Part shown: positions 19,960-62,842 of the stretch, one piece after another
Layout of the letters: each line of letters starts with the position of its first letter
Position numbering within the stretch: position 1 is the stretch's first letter
From: Selenomonadaceae bacterium
GTDB lineage: Bacteria > Bacillota > Negativicutes > Selenomonadales > Selenomonadaceae
DNA: 64,000 nt
Assembly: GCA_017554235.1 (NCBI GenBank)
Contig: JAFZIV010000061.1
Location: 15,984 to 79,983 of the forward strand
Direction of reading: 5' to 3'
Translations under genes and position numbers: made by a program
The notes under the pieces: generated by a model
Told to the model about the DNA's origin: nothing
Seen by the model: the letters and a program-made list of their open reading frames with translations, nothing else
The model's database searches: none

Positions 19960-20208
19960 TGAAAAAGGCGGTGTTTGTAGTCAGTAACCCCCGCCTAACG
20001 GCGGAGGCTTGTTAAAAGCCTTGATTGACTAGCCTTAGTCTCTGACTACGTTACTTGCGAATGTATAGTTACCTACGAGCGTAAATCCTAACTTGTAGCT
20101 CTAAGGGCAATGGTTAAACAGTTCTGAGAGGTAAGAACAGTGCTGTTGCCATGTAAACCGCAAGATAACTTTGGCGAAGGATTATAACTCCGAGAGGAGG
20201 TATGCTTT
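19960..20208 (+). ncRNA. candidate IscB omega-RNA (guide plus scaffold)
   Basis: 253-nt non-coding gap directly 5' of iscB on the same strand. Nested helices readable by eye are: gtagtcag 19977-19984 with ctgactac 20042-20049; ccgcc 19991-19995 with ggcgg 20000-20004; aggctt 20005-20010 with aagcct 20016-20021; ggcaa 20106-20110 with ttgcc 20146-20150; gttct 20121-20125 with agaac 20134-20138. Size and position fit the known IscB omega-RNA arrangement. The exact ends and the guide are not determinable here. Confidence 0.6.
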
Positions 20209-26156: not shown

Positions 26157-26229
26157 TCAGTGATCAGTAATCAGTGATCCGTAGTCAGTTAAAAAATTCT
26201 GATCACTGACCACTGACTACTAACCACTT
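26157..26229 (+). repeat. Family A heptamer-hairpin repeat, copy A1
   Basis: TCAGTGA TCAGTAA TCAGTGA TCCGTAG TCAGTTA - aaaaatt - CTGATCA CTGACCA CTGACTA CTAACCA CTT. It ends 5 nt before the glgP GGAGG. Confidence 0.85.
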
Positions 26230-26251: not shown

Positions 26252-28714
26252 ATGGCTATAAATGAAAAGAAAATTACCCATAGCAAAGAATACGAAAAGC
26301 TTAAGGAAAATCTGAAACAACGTTTCATCAGTTCCGCCCACATTATGTTTGGACGCGATCTGAAAGATTTGCCGATGAACGACATTTACAAAACTGTCGC
26401 GGCGGTTGCGAAACAGATTATTTCAGAAAACTGGATTCAGACCAACAAAGCCTATATGGACAGGCAGGTTAAGCAGGTTTATTACTTCTCAATCGAATTT
26501 TTGATGGGGCGTCTCCTGAAATCGAACTTGATTAATCTCGGTATTGATGAAGCTTTCCGTGAAGTCATGGAAGACCTTGAATTTAACCTTGACGAAGCCA
26601 TTGATGAGGAAATGGATATAGGTCTCGGCAACGGCGGTTTAGGGCGTCTTGCCGCGTGTTTTATCGACTCAATGGCGGCGCATCGTCTGCCCGGTCATGG
26701 TTGCTGTATTCGTTATCAGTACGGACTTTTCGAGCAAAAAATTATTCAAGGTAACCAAGTCGAAATTCCCGATAACTGGTTACGTGACGGTTTCGCGTGG
26801 GAATATCGTAAACCCGATAAGGCTATCAACGTCAAATTCAACGGCAACGCTTATATGAAGAAACAGCCTGACGGTTCATTAAAGCTTGTTCATGAAAATG
26901 CTATGGTCGTTATGGCGGTACCTTATGATGTGCCGATTGTAGGTTATCATAATAAGACCGTTAATACTCTTAGATTGTGGAACGCGGAAGTCAATCGTGA
27001 TTTCTCAGATTACGGAATGCTCACTCATGAACAAATGCGCCAAAAACAGGAATACCGTAACTTCGTTGAATCCATTACCCAATACCTTTACCCCGATGAT
27101 AGTTCCAATGAAGGCAAGCGTATGCGCCTGATTCAAGAATACTTCCTCGTCTCCGCCGGCGTCCAATCTATCGTCCGCCATTACGTTAAAGCCGGTATGA
27201 ATATCCGCGAATTTGATAAGAAAATCGCTATCCATATTAACGATACTCACCCCGCACTTTGCGTAGCCGAATTGATGAGAATTTTGGTTGACGATTACGA
27301 TCTTGAATGGAATGAAGCTTGGACTATTACCCGTGCTACCTGCGCTTATACCAACCATACCATTCTCCCTGAAGCACTCGAAACTTGGCCCGTCGATATG
27401 TTCAAAGCTTTACTCCCGCGTATCTATATGATTATCGACGAAATTAACCGTAGACACGTAGAATATATCCGCGCCCGTTATCCTGATAATGTCGATAAAG
27501 TTCGCGCTATGTCTATCATTGAATACGGCGTCGTTCATATGGCTCGCCTCGCTATCGTAGGTTCTCATTCTGTAAACGGCGTCGCGCGTATCCATTCCGA
27601 TATTCTTAAATCTACCACCCTTCACGACTTCTACGAATATTGGCCCCGTATGTTCAATAACAAAACTAACGGCATTACTCATCGCCGCTGGCTCATGGGA
27701 GCAAATCCCGAACTCGCCGACCTTATCGACCGTACTATCGGCTCTCGTATTTGGCACCGTCACCCTGAACAACTCGATTTGTTAAATGAAGCCGTTGATA
27801 ATCCTAAAGTCCTGCGTGAACTCGGCGAAATTAAACATATCCGTAAAGTCGCACTTGCCGAATATATCAAAAAGCATAACAATATCGACGTAGACCCTGA
27901 TACCATTTTTGATATTCAAGTTAAGCGCATTCACTCTTATAAACGGCAACTTATGAATATCCTCCACATCATTTGGCAGTATAACAAACTTAAGACGGAT
28001 CCCAGTTATAACCCGCCTGCTACTACTTATTTCTTCGGCGGTAAAGCTGCGCCCGGTTATTATATCGCTAAGGAAACTATCCGCTTGATTCTTGCCGTTG
28101 CTAAATTGGTTAATAATGACGCCAGCATAAAAGGAAAATTGAAAGTTGTCTTTATCGAAAACTTTGGCGTTTCCATTGGCGAAATTGTTTATCCTGCGGC
28201 TGATGTCTCTGAACAAATTTCAACGGCGTCGAAAGAAGCGTCCGGCACAGGAAATATGAAATTTATGATGAACGGTGCAATAACGCTTGGCACTCTTGAC
28301 GGTGCGAACGTTGAGATTCGTGAAGCTGTCGGCGACGATAACATTGTTATTTTCGGTCTTAAAGCCGGTGAAGTTCTGCGCTATTATGAAACGGGTACTT
28401 ATTCCGCGTGGCAAGAATTCAATGAAAATCCCAATGCGCGTTTAGTGCTTGACAAGTTGACTGACGGAACTTTCGGCAATTTCCAATCTTTGCGTGATTA
28501 TCTGTTGCACGGCAATGACGAATTTTTCATTTTGAAAGACTTCAATGCTTACATTGATGCGCACAACGAAATTTATGCACGATACGAAGATAAAATGAGT
28601 TGGTTGCGTTCAGCCGCTATTAACATTGCCAATTCTGCGCGGTTCTCGTCTGACAGGACGATTGATGAATACGCGGACGAAATTTGGCACATTGTACCTT
28701 GTAAGATTCAGTAA
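26252..28714 (+). CDS. glgP: glycogen/alpha-glucan phosphorylase
   Basis: About 820 aa. The GT35 hallmark EASGTGNMKFMMNGA (PLP lysine) is present, with conserved N-terminal glycogen-binding regions. The ATG at 26252 lies 10 nt after GGAGGTG. Confidence 0.95.
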   Translation: MAINEKKITHSKEYEKLKENLKQRFISSAHIMFGRDLKDLPMNDIYKTVAAVAKQIISENWIQTNKAYMDRQVKQVYYFSIEFLMGRLLKSNLINLGIDEAFREVMEDLEFNLDEAIDEEMDIGLGNGGLGRLAACFIDSMAAHRLPGHGCCIRYQYGLFEQKIIQGNQVEIPDNWLRDGFAWEYRKPDKAINVKFNGNAYMKKQPDGSLKLVHENAMVVMAVPYDVPIVGYHNKTVNTLRLWNAEVNRDFSDYGMLTHEQMRQKQEYRNFVESITQYLYPDDSSNEGKRMRLIQEYFLVSAGVQSIVRHYVKAGMNIREFDKKIAIHINDTHPALCVAELMRILVDDYDLEWNEAWTITRATCAYTNHTILPEALETWPVDMFKALLPRIYMIIDEINRRHVEYIRARYPDNVDKVRAMSIIEYGVVHMARLAIVGSHSVNGVARIHSDILKSTTLHDFYEYWPRMFNNKTNGITHRRWLMGANPELADLIDRTIGSRIWHRHPEQLDLLNEAVDNPKVLRELGEIKHIRKVALAEYIKKHNNIDVDPDTIFDIQVKRIHSYKRQLMNILHIIWQYNKLKTDPSYNPPATTYFFGGKAAPGYYIAKETIRLILAVAKLVNNDASIKGKLKVVFIENFGVSIGEIVYPAADVSEQISTASKEASGTGNMKFMMNGAITLGTLDGANVEIREAVGDDNIVIFGLKAGEVLRYYETGTYSAWQEFNENPNARLVLDKLTDGTFGNFQSLRDYLLHGNDEFFILKDFNAYIDAHNEIYARYEDKMSWLRSAAINIANSARFSSDRTIDEYADEIWHIVPCKIQ

Positions 28715-28782
28715 TCAGTGAAAAGTAATCAGTGATCAGTGAAGAGTGAAAAAAATTTCTGACCACTGACCACTGACCACTT
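28708..28782 (+). repeat. Family A heptamer-hairpin repeat, copy A2
   Basis: TCAGTAA TCAGTGA AAAGTAA TCAGTGA TCAGTGA AGAGTGA - aaaaaattt - cTGACCAC TGACCAC TGACCAC TT. The first TAA is the glgP stop codon. It ends 4 nt before the glgB RBS. Confidence 0.85.
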
Positions 28783-28799: not shown

Positions 28800-30758
28800 G
28801 TGAAAACAACCGAACTTAACGAGTATGATCTTTACTTGTTCCACAACGGCACAAATTATTACGCTTATCAAATGCTCGGCGCACACTTCACGGAACAGGA
28901 CGGCAAAAAAGGCGTTCGTTTCGCAGTTTGGGCGAAAAATGCAAAGTCCGTCAGCGTAGTTGGCGAATTTAATAATTGGGATACTCGCGTACACAGAATG
29001 ATCCGCTTGCAAGACGGTGAAACGTGGAGTATTTTTATTGAAGGTCTCAAAGAGGGTATGACTTACAAATATGCGATTGAACCGCAATGGGGCGGACCGC
29101 ATATTTTGAAAGCTGATCCTTACGGTTTCTATGCTGAAAAGAAGCCTGCAACCGCGTCACGCCTTTACGATATGGAAGGATACGAGTGGCAAGACGGCGA
29201 ATATATGGAAGAAAAAGCAAAAGAATCTTCCTATAGTCGCCCAATGTTGATTTATGAGGTTCATGCAGGTTCTTGGCAACGTAAAGCACGCGGTGATAGC
29301 GATAAAGATGATGTTTATCTTTCCTACCGTGAATTGGCGGATAGACTTATTGCGTATGTCAAGAAGATGAACTACACGCATATAGAATTTATGCCGCTGA
29401 CGGAGCATCCCTTTGACGGTTCATGGGGTTATCAGACGACAGGTTACTACGCAGTAACGAGCCGCTACGGTGCGCCTAATGATTTCCGCTATTTCATTGA
29501 GACTGCGCACAAAAACGGTATCGGCGTCATAATGGACTGGGTACCGGGACATTTCTGCAAAAATAATGAAGGACTTCGCGAATTTGACGGAACTAACCTT
29601 TACGAATCAGACAATCCGCAACTTGCCGATAACAAAGGTTGGGGAACAATTAATTTTGACTACGGACGAACAGAAGTACAAAGTTTCTTAATCTCAAATG
29701 CGCTGTTCTGGTTCAATGAATATCATATAGACGGGTTGAGAATAGACGGGGTAGCAAATATGCTGTACCTGAACTTCGGACGCGAAGAAGGCGAGTGGAC
29801 GCCGAATAAATATGGCGATACGGGCAACCTTGAGGCTATCGACTTCATTAAAAAGCTTAACGAAGCAATCTTCAAATATCACCCGCAAGCGTTGATGATG
29901 GCGGAAGAATCCACAGATTGGCCTTTAATTTCCAAGCCGGTATATATGGGCGGAATGGGATTCAATTACAAGTGGAATATGGGCTGGATGAACGATATGC
30001 TGAAATATGTGAGCCTTGACCCGATATACCGCAAGTGGAATCACGATAAAGTGACGTTTAGCTTTATGTATGCGTTCAGTGAAAACTTTATCCTGCCGCT
30101 TTCACATGATGAAGTAGTACACGGAAAATGCTCGTTGATAGAGAAAATGCCGGGCGATTATTGGCAGAAATTTGCAGGGTTGAGAGGATTCTTCGGATAC
30201 TGGATGGCGCATCCCGGCAAGAAATTATTGTTTATGGGCAGTGAATACGGACAGTTCATTGAATGGAACGAGAATGACAGCTTAGATTGGCATTTAGTTG
30301 AACAGTACGAAAAACATACGCAAATGCAAAAATATTCAGCCGCGTTGAATAAATTCTACTGTGACAATAAGGCGTTCTGGCAGGTAGACTTTGATTGGAA
30401 CGGGTTCCAGTGGATAGACTGCAACGACAATGAAAACAGCGTGGTATCGTTTATACGTAAGGCGAAGGACGGCGAAGATTATATCATAGCGGTGTGCAAC
30501 TTTACGCCGGAAGTACGCGTAGGTTACAGAATCGGTGTACCCGACAAGGGCGCGTATGTTGAAGTGTTCAACAGTGACCTTGAAGAATTTGGCGGAAGTG
30601 GCGTAAAGAATGAAGGTGAATTGTTGACGCAGGACGTAGCGTGGCATAATCGCGGACAGTCGATAGAAGTTAGAGTGCCGCCTTTGGCGACGATTTACCT
30701 TAAGTACGTGAAAGGTTCTTACGTTGAACCGCCGAAGGAAGAAGAAGAAAAAGAGTAA
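28800..30758 (+). CDS. glgB: 1,4-alpha-glucan branching enzyme
   Basis: GH13_9 motifs: DWVPGHF, GLRIDGVANM, MMAEEST, LPLSHDEVVHGK. There is an N-terminal CBM48-like region. GTG start. Confidence 0.95.
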   Translation: MKTTELNEYDLYLFHNGTNYYAYQMLGAHFTEQDGKKGVRFAVWAKNAKSVSVVGEFNNWDTRVHRMIRLQDGETWSIFIEGLKEGMTYKYAIEPQWGGPHILKADPYGFYAEKKPATASRLYDMEGYEWQDGEYMEEKAKESSYSRPMLIYEVHAGSWQRKARGDSDKDDVYLSYRELADRLIAYVKKMNYTHIEFMPLTEHPFDGSWGYQTTGYYAVTSRYGAPNDFRYFIETAHKNGIGVIMDWVPGHFCKNNEGLREFDGTNLYESDNPQLADNKGWGTINFDYGRTEVQSFLISNALFWFNEYHIDGLRIDGVANMLYLNFGREEGEWTPNKYGDTGNLEAIDFIKKLNEAIFKYHPQALMMAEESTDWPLISKPVYMGGMGFNYKWNMGWMNDMLKYVSLDPIYRKWNHDKVTFSFMYAFSENFILPLSHDEVVHGKCSLIEKMPGDYWQKFAGLRGFFGYWMAHPGKKLLFMGSEYGQFIEWNENDSLDWHLVEQYEKHTQMQKYSAALNKFYCDNKAFWQVDFDWNGFQWIDCNDNENSVVSFIRKAKDGEDYIIAVCNFTPEVRVGYRIGVPDKGAYVEVFNSDLEEFGGSGVKNEGELLTQDVAWHNRGQSIEVRVPPLATIYLKYVKGSYVEPPKEEEEKE

Positions 30759-30825
30759 TCAGTGAAAAGTAATCAGTGATCAGTGAAAAAACTTCTGACC
30801 ACTGACCACTGATCACTGACCACTT
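30754..30825 (+). repeat. Family A heptamer-hairpin repeat, copy A3
   Basis: aGTAATC AGTGAAA AGTAATC AGTGATC AGTGAAA - aaactt - cTGACCAC TGACCAC TGATCAC TGACCAC TT. The first TAA is the glgB stop. It ends 7 nt before the glgA GGAGG. Confidence 0.85.
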
Positions 30826-46852: not shown

Positions 46853-47262
46853 AAAATTGCCTCCTAAATTTTAATCGCAGATATTATCACATTGTTTTAA
46901 AAAATTATCAAGCAAAAAATTTTCAGAATCTACTCGAATATTTATAGACAAAACGCAATATTTGTAGTAGGATTTTAAGTGGAATAAAATAATTTTTTTG
47001 GAAAGGGAGTTTTAAACAGTAACCCCAAACATTGACAAAAATATACATAGTCTCTAAAATGTCCCTATCAGCGAGAACCAAGCTGAATAAAAAAGTTTTA
47101 ATACCGGTGGCTCGCCGGGAATTCACGACTGTGGAGTGTTACAGCAAACGTTAGTAGGTAAGCCGAGAACGGACACGATGAAGCAGTAAGACAGAATCGC
47201 GAGGTCTGTCCGATTCATCTTGACTTAGACTTTTGTCTATGTTTTAAGGAGCAGTGGTTGTA

Positions 47263-58716: not shown

Positions 58717-58747
58717 TAAGAGTCATTGCTCCTTTCACTACGCATTA

Positions 58748-58838
58748 CGCATTATTATCTTTCAGTTTTCAGCTTTTAGAAAATTTCCATAAGCTATAGG
58801 CTGAAAACTTTCATTACGCATTACGTACTAGCAGACCG
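58748..58838 (-). repeat. Family D heptamer repeat/hairpin, copy D1
   Basis: On the transcribed strand, GTAATGC GTAATGA precedes a perfect 10-bp hairpin: agttttcagc (plus-strand 58775-58784) with gctgaaaact (58811-58820). ATAATGC GTAATGC GTAGTGA follows, and then the rpoA AAGGAG. Confidence 0.75.
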
Positions 58839-58839
58839 A

Positions 58840-59433: not shown

Positions 59434-59450
59434 TAAATTTTCTCCTTATA

Positions 59451-59467
59451 ATTACGCATTACGCATT
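59451..59467 (-). repeat. Family D heptamer repeat, copy D2 (no hairpin)
   Basis: The transcribed strand reads AATGCGT AATGCGT AAT, between the rpsK stop and the rpsD AAGGAG. Confidence 0.7.
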
Positions 59468-59470
59468 GAA

Positions 59471-59863
59471 TTAAACTCTTCTGCGTTTCGGGGGACGGCA
59501 TCCGTTATGCGGAATGGGTGTAACGTCTTTAATCATATTGACTTCAAGACCCGTAGCCTGCAGTGAACGAATCGCCGCTTCACGACCTGCGCCCGGACCT
59601 TTGACGAAAACTTCAACCTGTTTCAAGCCGTGTTCCATAGCCGCCTTTGCCGCTACTTCCGCCGCCTGCTGTGCCGCAAACGGAGTACTTTTACGCGAAC
59701 CGCGAAAACCGAGTCCGCCTGCACTTGCCCACGAAAGTGCGTTGCCGCCCTTATCGGTAATTGTGACAATCGTGTTATTGAAAGTGGAGCTGATATGCGC
59801 CACGCCGTATTCTACATTCTTGCGGACTTTTTTCTTTGCACGAACTGTTCTTTTCGTTGCCAC
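59471..59863 (-). CDS. rpsK: 30S ribosomal protein S11
   Basis: Canonical S11 ([18 protein letters not shown]..., [13 protein letters not shown]). GTG start 9 nt after GGAGG. Confidence 0.95.
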
Positions 59864-59884
59864 CTAATTAATCCTCCTTAATGA

Positions 59885-59962
59885 AGTGGTCAGTGGTCAG
59901 TGATCAGTGGTCAGAAGTTTTTACTATTCACTGATCACTGATTACTATTCACTGATCACTCT
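59885..59962 (-). repeat. Family A heptamer-hairpin repeat, copy A4
   Basis: The transcribed strand reads gag TGA TCAGTGA ATAGTAA TCAGTGA TCAGTGA ATAGTAA - aaactt - cTGACCAC TGATCAC TGACCAC TGACCAC TT. The first TGA is the rpsM stop. It ends 5 nt before the rpsK AAGGAGG. Confidence 0.85.
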
Positions 59963-60327
59963 TTCTTCTTGCCTTGTACAAGCTTTTTAGGACCTTTACG
60001 CGTTCTGGCGTTGTTTTTGGTATTCTGTCCACGAACGGGAAGACCGAGACGATGGCGGCGTCCGCGATAGCAGCCAATATCAATGAGTCGCTTAATGTCC
60101 ATCTGAATATCGCGGCGAAGGTCACCTTCAACCACGTAGTTATGATCGATGACATCACGAAGCTTTACAACCTCGTCGTCCGTGAGGTCTTTCGTTCTGG
60201 TATCGGGATTAATACCCGTTTCCTTCAAAATTTTTTGTGACGAAGGAAGACCGATTCCAAAAATATACGTCAACGCGTATTCGATTCTCTTGTCACGGGG
60301 CAAATCTACACCGGCTATACGTGCCAT
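59956..60327 (-). CDS. rpsM: 30S ribosomal protein S13
   Basis: [26 protein letters not shown] is the canonical S13 N-terminus. Confidence 0.95.
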
Positions 60328-60354
60328 AAAAAATTTTCACCTCCTCAAAAAAAT

Positions 60355-60468
60355 TTATCCCTGACGCTGTTTGTGCTTGGGATTTTCGCAAATAACCATA
60401 ACGCGACCTTTGCGCTTAATAATTTTGCACTTGTCGCACATCTTCTTAACTGAAGGTCTAACTTTCAA
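60355..60468 (-). CDS. rpmJ: 50S ribosomal protein L36
   Basis: This gene is not in the ORF track. The minus strand translates to M(TTG)[36 protein letters not shown] (37 aa, zinc-ribbon CxxC...C..H). GGAGG lies 7 nt upstream. It sits between infA and rpsM as expected. Confidence 0.9.
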
Positions 60469-60580
60469 AGTTCCCGCCTCCTATTCAACAATCAGCTAAT
60501 TTACCACGTTTTTAATTAATTGTCTACAAAAATTTTTAATTTGACGAAAAAATAATTTAAATTTGACTCGAAAAAATTTT

Positions 60581-60799
60581 TTACTTGAAACGATAAGTAA
60601 TTCTGCCGCGCGAAAGATCGTAGGGCGTAAGTTCAATCGTCACCTTATCGCCGGGCAAAATGCGGATAAAGTTCATACGAATTTTTCCGGAAACGTGCGC
60701 CAAAACCATATGCCCGTTTTCAAGCTGCACTTGGAACATTGCATTGGGCAAGGCTTCTACGACTTTGCCTTCTACTTCGATTACGTCTTGCTTTGACAT
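60581..60799 (-). CDS. infA: translation initiation factor IF-1
   Basis: [30 protein letters not shown]..., the canonical IF-1. 72 aa. Confidence 0.95.
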
Positions 60800-60815
60800 C
60801 TCTTTTTACCTCGAT

Positions 60816-61469
60816 TCATCCTTCCACCGAGTTCAAGACGTTTTCGAGTTCTTCGGTGACTTTTTCTATCGGCTGTCTGCCATCTACTTCCGTATACAAT
60901 CCTACTTTTTCGTAGTACTCTATCAACGGGCGCGTCGATTCTTCATACACGCTTAACCTTTTCTTCATCGTCTCTTCAGTATCATCTGCACGTTGATATA
61001 ACTTACCACCGCAATTATCGCAAGTGTCTTCAACTTTCGGCGCATTGAACTTTACATGATACGTTGCGCCACATCCTTTGCAAATTCGCCGTCCTACTGC
61101 GCGTTCAATCAAAAATTCCGCCGGTACTCTTATATTTAAAACTTTCGTAAGCTTTAAATTCAGTTCGTCCAAAATTTTTTCTAACGCCTTCGCTTGCTCC
61201 ACTGTGCGCGGAAATCCGTCTAATATAAATCCGCCCTTGCAGTCATCTTTAGCAAGTCTTTCACGGACTATTCCTACCGTTACTTCATCAGGTACAAGCG
61301 TCCCTGCATCCATACACGCTTTTGCTTTTTTGCCGAGCTCCGTACCTTCCTTTACTGCCGCGCGGAACATATCTCCCGTTGAAATTTGCGGTATCTTATA
61401 TTTTTCTACCAGTTTGACCGCCTGCGTACCTTTTCCTGCGCCGGGAGGTCCCATTAATAAAAGTTGCAT
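60816..61469 (-). CDS. adk: adenylate kinase
   Basis: P-loop [10 protein letters not shown]. Zinc-lid CKGCGATYH...CDNCGG. Confidence 0.95.
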
Positions 61470-61488
61470 TTTGTTTCCTCCAATTTTA

Positions 61489-61585
61489 AGTGGTCAGTGA
61501 TCAGTGGTCAGTGGTCAGAAATTTTTCACTTTTCACTGATCACTGATTACTTTTCACTGATCACTGATTACTTTTCACTGATTAC
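61489..61585 (-). repeat. Family A heptamer-hairpin repeat, copy A5 (longest)
   Basis: The transcribed strand, starting right after the secY TAA, reads GTAATCA GTGAAAA GTAATCA GTGATCA GTGAAAA GTAATCA GTGATCA GTGAAAA GTGAAAA - attt - cTGACCAC TGACCAC TGATCAC TGACCAC TT. It ends 6 nt before the adk GGAGG. Confidence 0.85.
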
Positions 61586-62842
61586 TTACTTCATAAAGCC
61601 TTCATAGTGCCGCATGACGACCATTGATTCTATCTGTTTCATCGTATGAAGCGCAACACTTACCACGATTAATAATGCCGTCCCGCCGAAATATACGCCT
61701 TGTATGTGCGTCGCTCCTCCTATCATCGTCGGCAATACCGCTATAAATGATAAGAAGACTGATCCCGCCAGCGTCAATCTCGTCAATACGTGATCTATAT
61801 AATCTGCCGTCGGTTGCCCCGGTCTGATTCCAGGTATAAACGCTCCATACTTTTTAAGATTGTCCGCCATATCAGGGATTTTTACCGTTACTGCCGTGTA
61901 GAAATACGTAAAGAAAATTATCAGCACAACGTAGATTGACGTTTGTAACGGCGTTCCCCATTGTAAATACGCCGCCACTTTCTGTACCGTCGGATTGTCG
62001 ATAAACTGTACCACCGTTATCGGGAACATCAGCACGCTTGACGCAAAGATTATCGGTATTACACCTGCTTGATTCACTTTCAACGGTATGTGGCTTGAAT
62101 GTCCGCCATATGCTCTTGAGCCTGTAACTCTTTTTGCGTAGGTTATCGGTATCCGTCTGTATGCCGCCTCGACGTAGATTACGAATACTATCATCGCTAC
62201 CGCTATCATTGCGAAAAGTAACGCGTTGAAATAATTTATCGTTCCGGCTTGCAGATAGCTGTATATCATTCCCAGATTTTTAGGCAGTGCCGCGACTATT
62301 CCCGCGAAGATGATTAACGATATTCCGTTTCCTACGCCCTGCGCCGTTATCTGTTCGCCTATCCACATCAACAGCGTTGTCCCTGCCGTCAACGTGATTG
62401 CTATGATTAATATGTTGACGGGATTGGGATTTAATATCGCCGCTTTCAGACCGATTGACATCCCTATTGCTTGTAAGAATGCCAGTACTACCGTTAATTT
62501 GCGCGTTACCTTCGTCATCTTTTTATGACCTTCCGCGCCTTCCTTCGACCATTGCTCCAATGTCGGTATCACTACCGTTAAAAGTTGCATTATGATTGAC
62601 GCGTTGATATACGGCGTGATACTCATCGCGAAGATTGAAAATTTACTGAACGCTCCGCCTGAAAATAAATCCAGCAGTCCGAATAAACTTCCGTTGTTGA
62701 AAAGTTGCTCTATCGCCGTTGGATCGACGCCCGGTACAGGTATGTGAGTTCCCAGTCGAAATACCGCAAACATTATCAGCGTAAAGATTATACGTTGTCG
62801 CAGTTCAGGAATTTTGAAAATATTTGAAAGTGCGGAAAGCAC
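61586..62842 (-). CDS. secY: preprotein translocase subunit SecY
   Basis: 418 aa, 10 TM helices, with conserved SecY motifs (GISPYINASIIMQLL, etc.). In ribosomal operon context. Confidence 0.95.
   Translation of the reverse strand: MLSALSNIFKIPELRQRIIFTLIMFAVFRLGTHIPVPGVDPTAIEQLFNNGSLFGLLDLFSGGAFSKFSIFAMSITPYINASIIMQLLTVVIPTLEQWSKEGAEGHKKMTKVTRKLTVVLAFLQAIGMSIGLKAAILNPNPVNILIIAITLTAGTTLLMWIGEQITAQGVGNGISLIIFAGIVAALPKNLGMIYSYLQAGTINYFNALLFAMIAVAMIVFVIYVEAAYRRIPITYAKRVTGSRAYGGHSSHIPLKVNQAGVIPIIFASSVLMFPITVVQFIDNPTVQKVAAYLQWGTPLQTSIYVVLIIFFTYFYTAVTVKIPDMADNLKKYGAFIPGIRPGQPTADYIDHVLTRLTLAGSVFLSFIAVLPTMIGGATHIQGVYFGGTALLIVVSVALHTMKQIESMVVMRHYEGFMK

Follow-up and report, generated by a model that had tools for sequence, protein, structure and literature searches.

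Heptamer-repeat hairpins at two junctions of a Selenomonadaceae ribosomal protein operon are probably tolerated insertions

Results

Two hairpin elements fill the rpsM-rpsK and secY-adk spacers

We analyzed a window of 64,000 nucleotides (nt) from a Selenomonadaceae bacterium, corresponding to positions 15984-79983 of contig C58 in the genome assembly G000 (2.27 Mb, 39.8% G+C, 65 contigs, 94% complete). The ribosomal protein operon on its minus strand carries, between rpsM and rpsK and between secY and adk, two inverted arrays of tandem 7-nt units (heptamers), which are named A4 and A5 and belong to a dispersed repeat family, family A. The original prediction, made from the letters of the window alone, had recognized both as minus-strand family-A elements, and their coordinates were confirmed (Table 1). 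Measuring 76 bases (A4) and 98 bases (A5), the elements make up almost the whole of their spacers (92 and 116 nt, respectively), one hairpin element in each, from the stop codon to the Shine-Dalgarno (SD) sequence of the next gene.

The transcribed strand of A4 reads AG-TGA-TCAGTGAATAGTAATCAGTGATCAGTGAATAGTAAAAACTT / CTGACCACTGATCACTGACCACTGACCACTT, followed by CATTAAGGAGG and, further on, by the GTG start codon of rpsK. As predicted, the rpsM stop codon TGA lies inside the first repeat unit (AGTGATC) of A4, and A5 starts directly after the TAA of secY. A4 therefore supplies the stop codon of rpsM, for which relatives use TAA at that codon; downstream of A5, the region with the SD sequence and ATG of adk is nearly identical to the empty-site sequence of the sister species. 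In both elements the 5′ arm is composed of units of the type AGTGATC, AGTAATC or AGTGAAA, the loop contains AAAAA(C/T)TT, and the 3′ arm consists of CTGACCA and CTGATCA units and ends in CACTT, with the SD sequence and start codon directly behind. The loops (9-17 nt) hold no open reading frame (ORF) and, as read from the sequence, the 5′ arm closes all three frames within 14 nt in A4 and 33 nt in A5.

Tandem Repeats Finder reported a period of 7 in all four arms, with 4.3-7.7 copies per arm. In A5 the excess of the 5′ arm stems from three units duplicated together as a 21-nt block, reported with period 21, 2.8 copies and 97% matches. The expansion of this arm, which had been attributed to slippage, was thus borne out as regards the nine units and a change of register, but the inequality of the 9-unit and 4-unit arms is due to the duplicated block and not to single-heptamer steps. 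The motif TGACCACTGA, allowing at most one mismatch, matched 22 times in the window against 1.55 expected, a count reached by 0 of 100 shuffles. The elements had no Rfam match at the gathering threshold, and the window had no rRNA match.

Table 1. Positions of the elements and associated features. Numbers without a contig label refer to the window.
Feature	Position	Strand	Remarks
A1, family-A copy upstream of a glycogen phosphorylase-like gene	26159-26228	plus	
A2, family-A copy in the glycogen cluster	28710-28781	plus	35-nt core with 1 mismatch
A3, family-A copy in the glycogen cluster	30754-30824	plus	35-nt core exact
RNase III domain (PF14622) of the single rnc gene of the genome	53183-53566 (C58:69166-69549)	minus	enzyme presumed to act on such stems
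rpsK SD (AAGGAGG) and GTG start, immediately 3′ of A4	59861-59884	minus	GTG at 59861-59863
A4, family-A heptamer hairpin filling the rpsM-rpsK spacer	59885-59960	minus	6 units / loop / 4 units (transcribed strand)
rpsM stop codon TGA, inside the first unit of A4	59956-59958	minus	
adk SD and ATG, TTAAAATTGGAGGAAACAAAATG, immediately 3′ of A5	61467-61488	minus	ATG at 61467-61469, 19 nt after the end of A5
A5, family-A heptamer hairpin filling the secY-adk spacer	61489-61586	minus	5′ arm 9 units, 3′ arm 4 units
secY stop codon TAA, abutting the first unit of A5	61586-61588	minus	
Family-A copy, rplF-rplR	C58:80825-80901		past the window end, same ribosomal cluster
Family-A copy, rplN-rplX	C58:83101-83178		past the window end, same ribosomal cluster
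PF05635 gene with family-A arms	C30:190-504		element C30:133-575; arms AGTGGTCAGTGATCAGTGGTCAGTGG ... CTGACCACTGACAACTGATCACTGATCACTTAAAA; stem of about 30 bp, -48.9 kcal/mol
PF05635 gene with AGTGAAT-family arms	C51:29367-29684		element C51:29321-29752
Family-A hairpins in insertion-sequence ends, first group	C16:41049-41117, C17:37804-37872, C37:12346-12407		
Family-A hairpins in insertion-sequence ends, second group	C21:5129-5200, C26:53-124, C36:107776-107847, C42:52735-52806		

The two strands of family A fold differently

The elements folded better than all 200 shuffles, with z-scores from -4.2 to -7.2. Since A in the 5′ arm stands opposite C in the 3′ arm, A.C mismatches arise on the mRNA strand and G.U pairs on the opposite strand; the mRNA strand is predicted to form a 13-bp perfect helix with short flanking helices, and the antisense strand a stem of 28-31 bp. 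For A5 the predicted energy was -37.5 kcal/mol on the mRNA strand, with the 13-bp perfect helix, and -44.4 kcal/mol on the antisense strand, with a 31-bp stem; the corresponding values for A4 were -34.9 (z -4.2) and -41.4 kcal/mol (z -5.8). The stem is followed by CUUAAAAUUGGAGG in A5 and by CUUCAUUAAGGAGG in A4, and the U-tract behind a G+C-rich stem that marks an intrinsic terminator was not found.

This asymmetry raised the possibility that the antisense strand is the relevant one, where its near-perfect stem would counteract antisense transcription or act on the template strand in single-stranded form. The advantage of the antisense fold, 7-11 kcal/mol for A4 and A5 and visible also in the mean over 22 co-oriented family-A copies (-36.6 against -28.7 kcal/mol on the mRNA strand), speaks for it. 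However, no U-tract follows the antisense stem, the gene-carrying copy on contig C30 folds better in sense, and the sense strand was slightly the better one over the 103 spacers with 7-nt periodicity that lie between co-directional genes (56 vs 34 regions), so that we regard this explanation as highly improbable. The same count led us to reject the idea that strong double-stranded RNA is generally selected against on the mRNA strand; a sense stem weaker than its antisense counterpart is particular to family A.

The junctions are empty or differently filled in close relatives

Adk was used as the anchor for the comparison of the operon, and 27 relatives were read. The secY-adk junction measures 14-23 nt in the outgroups and 9-30 nt, that is, empty, in seven genomes of the genus; in the remaining genus genomes it is filled by unrelated heptamer families, TTAAGAA, TAGTTGC, AGGAATT and GTGGTCA among them. 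The rpsM-rpsK junction showed the same pattern of empty or differently filled sites across the relatives. Of 19 genus genomes, only G000 (124 pattern matches) and the relative G017 (32) are rich in family-A arrays.

Closer to the window, contigs encoding an identical RpsM (90-96% nt identity) have another heptamer family at almost every junction of the alpha operon. In four of these contigs (L208, L211, L212 and L213) the secY-adk junction is empty, with 12-15 nt, and TAA is directly joined to AATGGAGGAAACAAAATG, compared to TAA-A5-TAAAATTGGAGGAAACAAAATG here. Contigs with an identical Adk fell into two groups: the first was 100% identical to the window and had A5 unchanged, and in the second, with 97.6-98.3% nt identity in adk and secY, A5 is replaced by a hairpin of another family, family B (AGATCGTT/AACGATCT). 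A portable SD at the 3′ end of this family-B allele was also considered, but no second copy was found in G000.

The elements are therefore transient insertions and not an ancestral part of the operon, and their copies appear and disappear on time scales that reach from within a species to between species. Variation in heptamer number, for which the original prediction had proposed a check in populations, was not seen for A4 or A5 in a tiny sample: two metagenome pattern scans were empty, and contigs with identical Adk or RpsK had either 100% identical copies of A5 or A4 or the family-B allele.

The neighboring rpsK-rpsD and rpsD-rpoA spacers (window 58717-58839 and 59434-59470, minus strand) contain one-armed GCGTAAT arrays that are common to sister lineages; the rpsD-rpoA array is broken by a nested hairpin of another family (AGCTTAT / AAGCTGA).

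Family A is dispersed over stop-to-SD gaps in the genome

A genome-wide pattern of at least three AGT-phased units, a short loop and at least three ACT-phased units returned 85 AGT-phase hairpins, comprising 46 of family A and 36 of a sister AGTGAAT/ATTCACT family; all but one (84/85) lie outside ORFs as called by a crude longest-ORF procedure. A second search, independent of the unit sequence, retrieved spacers with dominant 7-nt periodicity. It identified 117 of them, 103 between co-directional genes, which amounts to 15% of the co-directional spacers as compared to 14 of 330 (4%) convergent or divergent ones (p=9e-8). The upstream stop codon is inside the element or at most 7 nt away in 23 of 30 family-A and 26 of 31 AGTGAAT-family copies, and the next start codon follows 8-27 nt downstream. 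The elements are thus inserted in the short stretch that separates a stop codon from the following SD sequence, often supply the stop, and leave the downstream ribosome-binding site intact. The original prediction had proposed that such insertions are tolerated or useful between essential genes, and their being tolerated between essential, closely packed genes was supported.

Dispersed copies at unlinked loci have a 35-nt core in common, GTAATCAGTGAAAAGTAATCAGTGATCAGTGAAAA. The core was said to be nearly identical in A2, A3, A4 and A5; it is exact in A3 and A5 and has one mismatch in A2, but A4 departs from it by three. These shared cores, together with the filled, empty and replaced sites, suggest that copies have spread between loci. 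The genes rplF, rplR, rplN and rplX, which flank the two copies past the window end, were identified by eye from their protein sequences.

Two multi-copy insertion-sequence families have family-A hairpins within their non-coding ends, seven in all (Table 1), and the one on C36 starts about 50 nt past the stop codon of a TnpB-like ORF; hairpins therefore also hitch-hike in other mobile elements. In a contig of the same species, adk and infA are separated by an insert of about 280 nt (L219:2034-2320) that resembles the insertion-sequence-end sequences of G000 carrying family-A hairpins. Elsewhere in the window, Rfam matches were HEARO (IscB omega-RNA) at positions 19980-20188, with 128 bits, and RAGATH-18 at 47128-47189, with 70.6 bits.

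We considered whether family A could be a classical miniature inverted-repeat transposable element (MITE) or REP-type element moved by a transposase, either a Y1 enzyme of the IS200/IS605 type, a RAYT or a DDE enzyme. The original prediction had seen neither terminal inverted repeats nor target-site duplications. The whole element is in fact one long inverted repeat with the ends TTAAGT...ACTTAA, its dispersed copies share cores, seven of them ride inside TnpB/IscB-type insertion-sequence ends, and comparison with the empty site TAA-AATGGAGG shows TAA on both sides of A5, as a 3-bp duplication could leave it. The view that family A is not a MITE thus stands in part, and no consistent target duplication and no transposase were found: a TTAAGAA-family insert at the same site as A5 has no matching duplication, and the Y1 transposase domain PF01797 had 0 matches in the 94% complete assembly G000 vs matches in 6 of 14 control genomes. 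Moreover, the arms are mosaics of variable units rather than a fixed terminal repeat, and the only longer relatives of the elements carry a gene for the PF05635 four-helix bundle, which is not a known transposase. A transposase-driven element is therefore very unlikely.

Co-orientation with transcription is confined to one subfamily

All seven family-A copies on this contig, five in the window and two past its end, are co-oriented with transcription, and A4 and A5 have the same polarity as the three plus-strand glycogen copies, as the original prediction had noted. Genome-wide counts were limited to copies between co-directional genes, since the scoring of copies between convergent or divergent genes always comes out the same, which makes them uninformative; the seven copies inside insertion-sequence ends were left out. 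Same and opposite orientation were found in a ratio of 22:5 (p=0.0015). The subfamily carrying the 35-nt core with up to three mismatches, which takes in A2-A5, gave 12:0 (p=0.0005), and family-A copies lacking the core gave 10:5, which is not significant. The proposed co-orientation is thus a real bias, but it is not strict, with five copies opposite to both flanking genes. In addition, one copy (C62:18885-18962) is located within the coding sequence of a protein of about 1380 aa that has helicase and N6-methylase motifs (DEAH ... NPPY) and is restriction-modification-like as judged by eye; its altered units keep the host frame open, and about 30 extra residues (LSNQLSVISDQKNSKSSLTTDHFSLTTFFP) are read through in frame.

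No bias was observed in the AGTGAAT family (10:9 by energy) or in the CTGACCA-armed elements of G017 (6:5). The CTGACCA arrays of G017 form a hybrid family with TAGCTGT 5′ arms (L229-L248), and the poor complementarity of the two arms implies that arms can mix between families. TAGCTGT is also the arm family of the PF05635 gene of G017 itself (L153). As for replication or transcription as the cause of the bias, the bulk GC skew follows the coding strand, and the GC3 skew was too noisy on 65 contigs.

Co-orientation is therefore real but is a property of one homogeneous, presumably young subfamily. That the bias is absolute in the homogeneous subfamily and weak in the diverged copies favors directional spread, since long-term purifying selection predicts the reverse. 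The co-orientation of A2-A5 most likely reflects how the subfamily spread, selection for an RNA function being the less likely cause; one way to keep the direction would be copying from one junction to another, each with a stop codon at one end and an SD sequence at the other.

The original prediction had taken strict orientation as an argument for function or selection at the RNA level. A functional intercistronic RNA module would process or stabilize mRNA segments, or uncouple the translation of adjacent cistrons, and so set protein ratios; if any heptamer family could serve, this would explain replacement without loss. The exact stop-to-SD placement, the strong enrichment between co-directional genes and the family-A orientation bias are in line with such a module, and so are the presence of some array at rpsM-rpsK and rpsD-rpoA in all 10 close lineages and the concerted change of both arms, with the protein kept, at an orthologous insert (L149 vs L150). 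A function has also been proposed for similar cyanobacterial repeats (PMC2670836). Yet sequence conservation is absent, both junctions, secY-adk and rpsM-rpsK, lack an insert in several members of the genus and in every outgroup, where nothing points to compensation, a family-B allele occurs within the same species, the bias is missing from the diverged copies, the AGTGAAT family and G017, and copies also occur between convergent genes, in insertion-sequence ends and inside a gene. The argument from orientation was thus not sustained, and we consider such a module unlikely.

Longer copies of the same hairpins enclose PF05635 genes

In three relatives, the secY-adk hairpin has AGGAATK arms and holds in its loop an ORF of 120 aa, which belongs to the "23S rRNA intervening-sequence protein" family of four-helix bundles (PF05635 / TIGR02436); the nearest solved structure to the PF05635 protein is 2GSC, deposited with five chains. 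G000 has two PF05635 genes, both located in the loops of heptamer hairpins (Table 1), and their arms are those of the two most abundant ORF-less AGT-phase hairpin families. Almost all 30 PF05635 copies in the genus and one outgroup are armed likewise, each with its own unit, at sites that include the junction before atpD and the junction between the small and large subunit genes of NiFe hydrogenase. At L155, L156, L157 and L160 (G007, G014, G004 and G005), a PF05635 gene with TAGGGAC/CCCTA-type arms lies between apparent NiFe hydrogenase subunit genes.

The association extends to other phyla. PF05635 genes, again armed, are present in 11 of 12 genomes that were picked solely for holding CTGACCA arrays. 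Reverse-complementary arrays of 7/8-mers flank 40 of 59 PF05635 genes on both sides, in a sample skewed towards repeat-rich genomes, vs 4 of 245 control ORFs (p=8e-31), and 35 of 40 arrays adjoining PF05635 genes have a period of 7. A PF05635 gene of the cyanobacterium Microcoleus is flanked by arrays of CAACAGT, which we take to be the repeat STRR3. More than 119 contigs with 37-71% G+C, from Acidobacteriota, Planctomycetota, Chloroflexota, Verrucomicrobiota, Bacteroidota, cyanobacteria (Microcoleus) and others, contain exact (CTGAYCA)x3 arrays; many of the arrays form CAGTGGT...CTGACCA hairpins, and the CTGAYCA unit recurs across phyla.

Two expectations on the protein were dropped. A specificity of the protein for its arms was not borne out, as the PF05635 tree follows host lineage and not the heptamer sequence of the arms, and a reverse transcriptase acting as the partner of an Avd-like protein was discarded, because the only reverse transcriptase of the genome (C61:13661-14362, a 476-aa ORF) looks, by eye from the ORF translations, like a group II intron maturase inserted in an nrdD-like gene.

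The shared arms are what would be expected if the short hairpins were mobilized or maintained in trans by the PF05635 protein of a same-armed long copy, in the way REPINs depend on RAYTs. The two families concerned are exactly those enclosing the two genes of the genome, the association of PF05635 with arms holds across phyla, and G004 has, 1.5 kb from its AGGAATK-armed PF05635 copy at secY-adk, a hairpin of that arm family at rpsM-rpsK that contains no ORF. PF05635, however, has no known catalytic activity, and its proteins group by host lineage and not by arms. Other families of G000 (TAGGGAA, AGATCGTT, TTAAGAA) have no gene copy in the assembly, and G017 has many CTGACCA arrays and no PF05635 gene with those arms, indicating that a same-armed gene copy is not needed for the presence of a family. 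A gene cassette that landed at random, and so in the commonest hairpins, would also yield this pattern. Action in trans is therefore possible but doubtful. We are equally tentative about the wider proposal that the short family-A and AGTGAAT hairpins are trans-dependent, ORF-less derivatives of C30:133-575 and C51:29321-29752, and that PF05635, STRR-like arrays and rRNA intervening sequences form one system colonizing transcribed junctions.

Discussion

Short palindromes in extragenic space, often between co-transcribed genes, are known in proteobacteria as REP/BIME and REPIN-RAYT, which reach tens to hundreds of copies and can protect the upstream mRNA. The elements described here are likewise dispersed short palindromic repeats often found between co-transcribed genes, but no RAYT/Y1 transposase is present, the arms are made of variable 7-nt units, and unrelated families coexist and replace one another at one site. 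The MITE-like Correia (Neisseria) and ERIC/IRU (Yersinia) elements are co-transcribed hairpins with a fixed consensus, defined terminal repeats and TA target duplications; Correia is cut by RNase III, and ERIC alters mRNA stability depending on its orientation. Being hairpins inserted into operons, they offer the closest functional parallel to an effect on mRNA that depends on orientation, although neither their fixed consensus nor their terminal repeats and TA duplications were seen in the family of A4 and A5.

The likeness to cyanobacterial short tandemly repeated repetitive (STRR) sequences is closer. To our knowledge, STRR heptamer repeats have been known since 1990 without function or origin. 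They consist of tandem 7-nt units, as in the hupS-hupL intergenic hairpin of Anabaena/Nostoc, and a role in transcript stability or translational coupling has been proposed, the function being unknown (PMC2670836). Common to both are tandem heptamers, many dispersed intergenic copies and inverted arrays that fold between co-transcribed genes, and relatives of G000 carry such a hairpin between the genes of the small and large NiFe hydrogenase subunits, comparable to hupS-hupL. The units here (CAGTGAT, AAGTAAT, CTGACCA) differ from the canonical CCCCAGT, TTGGTCA and CAACAGT of heterocystous cyanobacteria, the nearest being STRR2, TTGGTCA, at one base from GTGGTCA. Further differences are that the elements here occur in an uncultured bacterium sampled from ruminant gut and fit precisely into stop-to-SD gaps, and that strict co-orientation with transcription characterizes one subfamily.

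The function of PF05635 proteins, which are widespread, is not known. The intervening sequences of 23S rRNA in Coxiella burnetii and Leptospira that bear an S23p/PF05635 ORF have, like our elements, an inverted-repeat stem with tandem heptamers and about 28-30 bp of pairing; that of Coxiella has a 28-bp stem cut by RNase III and tandem heptamers varying in number between strains (PMC4990558). The long family-A copy with a PF05635 gene in its loop strengthens the resemblance. A4 and A5 differ in their short, ORF-less loops, in their location in mRNA spacers and not in helix 25 or 45 of 23S rRNA, and in an mRNA-strand stem interrupted by A.C mismatches; excision by RNase III would be expected here by analogy only.

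Taken together, these results make it probable that A4 and A5 are tolerated, ORF-less insertions of the STRR/intervening-sequence type that are co-transcribed and fold on the mRNA, and not conserved regulators. Co-transcription with the operon and folding in vivo are presumed. The mRNA would fold into the interrupted stem (-35 to -37 kcal/mol), in which flanking pairs adjoin a perfect helix of 13 bp, the 5′ arm would shut all three frames, and the SD sequence would stay outside the stem. By analogy with intervening sequences, and as proposed for STRR, this stem is a plausible RNase III substrate or 3′-end-protecting structure, and cleavage by RNase III or protection of the 3′ end would most likely be its molecular consequence. 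The net effect on the operon may be near neutral, the elements being tolerated passengers on which the operon does not depend. Since the junctions of sister lineages function in the absence of the elements, a dedicated regulatory role is unlikely.

Several observations weigh against this interpretation. Some heptamer array is present at rpsM-rpsK in 10 of 10 identical-RpsM contigs, and a hairpin of any sequence could be useful there. No mobility enzyme and no consistent target-site duplication were found, and no movement was observed. G017, with its many CTGACCA arrays, lacks a PF05635 gene bearing those arms, and the gene calls are crude ones on a 94%-complete assembly in 65 contigs.

What this genome adds to the known heptamer repeats is a dense and precise colonization of stop-to-SD gaps in essential operons, together with a fast turnover in which empty, family-A and family-B alleles occur at one junction within about 2-5% nucleotide divergence. 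New here is also that the arms of both PF05635 genes belong to the two families that are most abundant among the ORF-less hairpins; if dependence in trans were true, the genome would offer a natural pair of autonomous and non-autonomous elements. The A5, family-B and empty alleles of secY-adk are concrete material on the effects of hairpins on operon mRNA, and a protein/repeat pair is available for binding. For annotation, such spacers should be read as passengers and not as conserved regulators.

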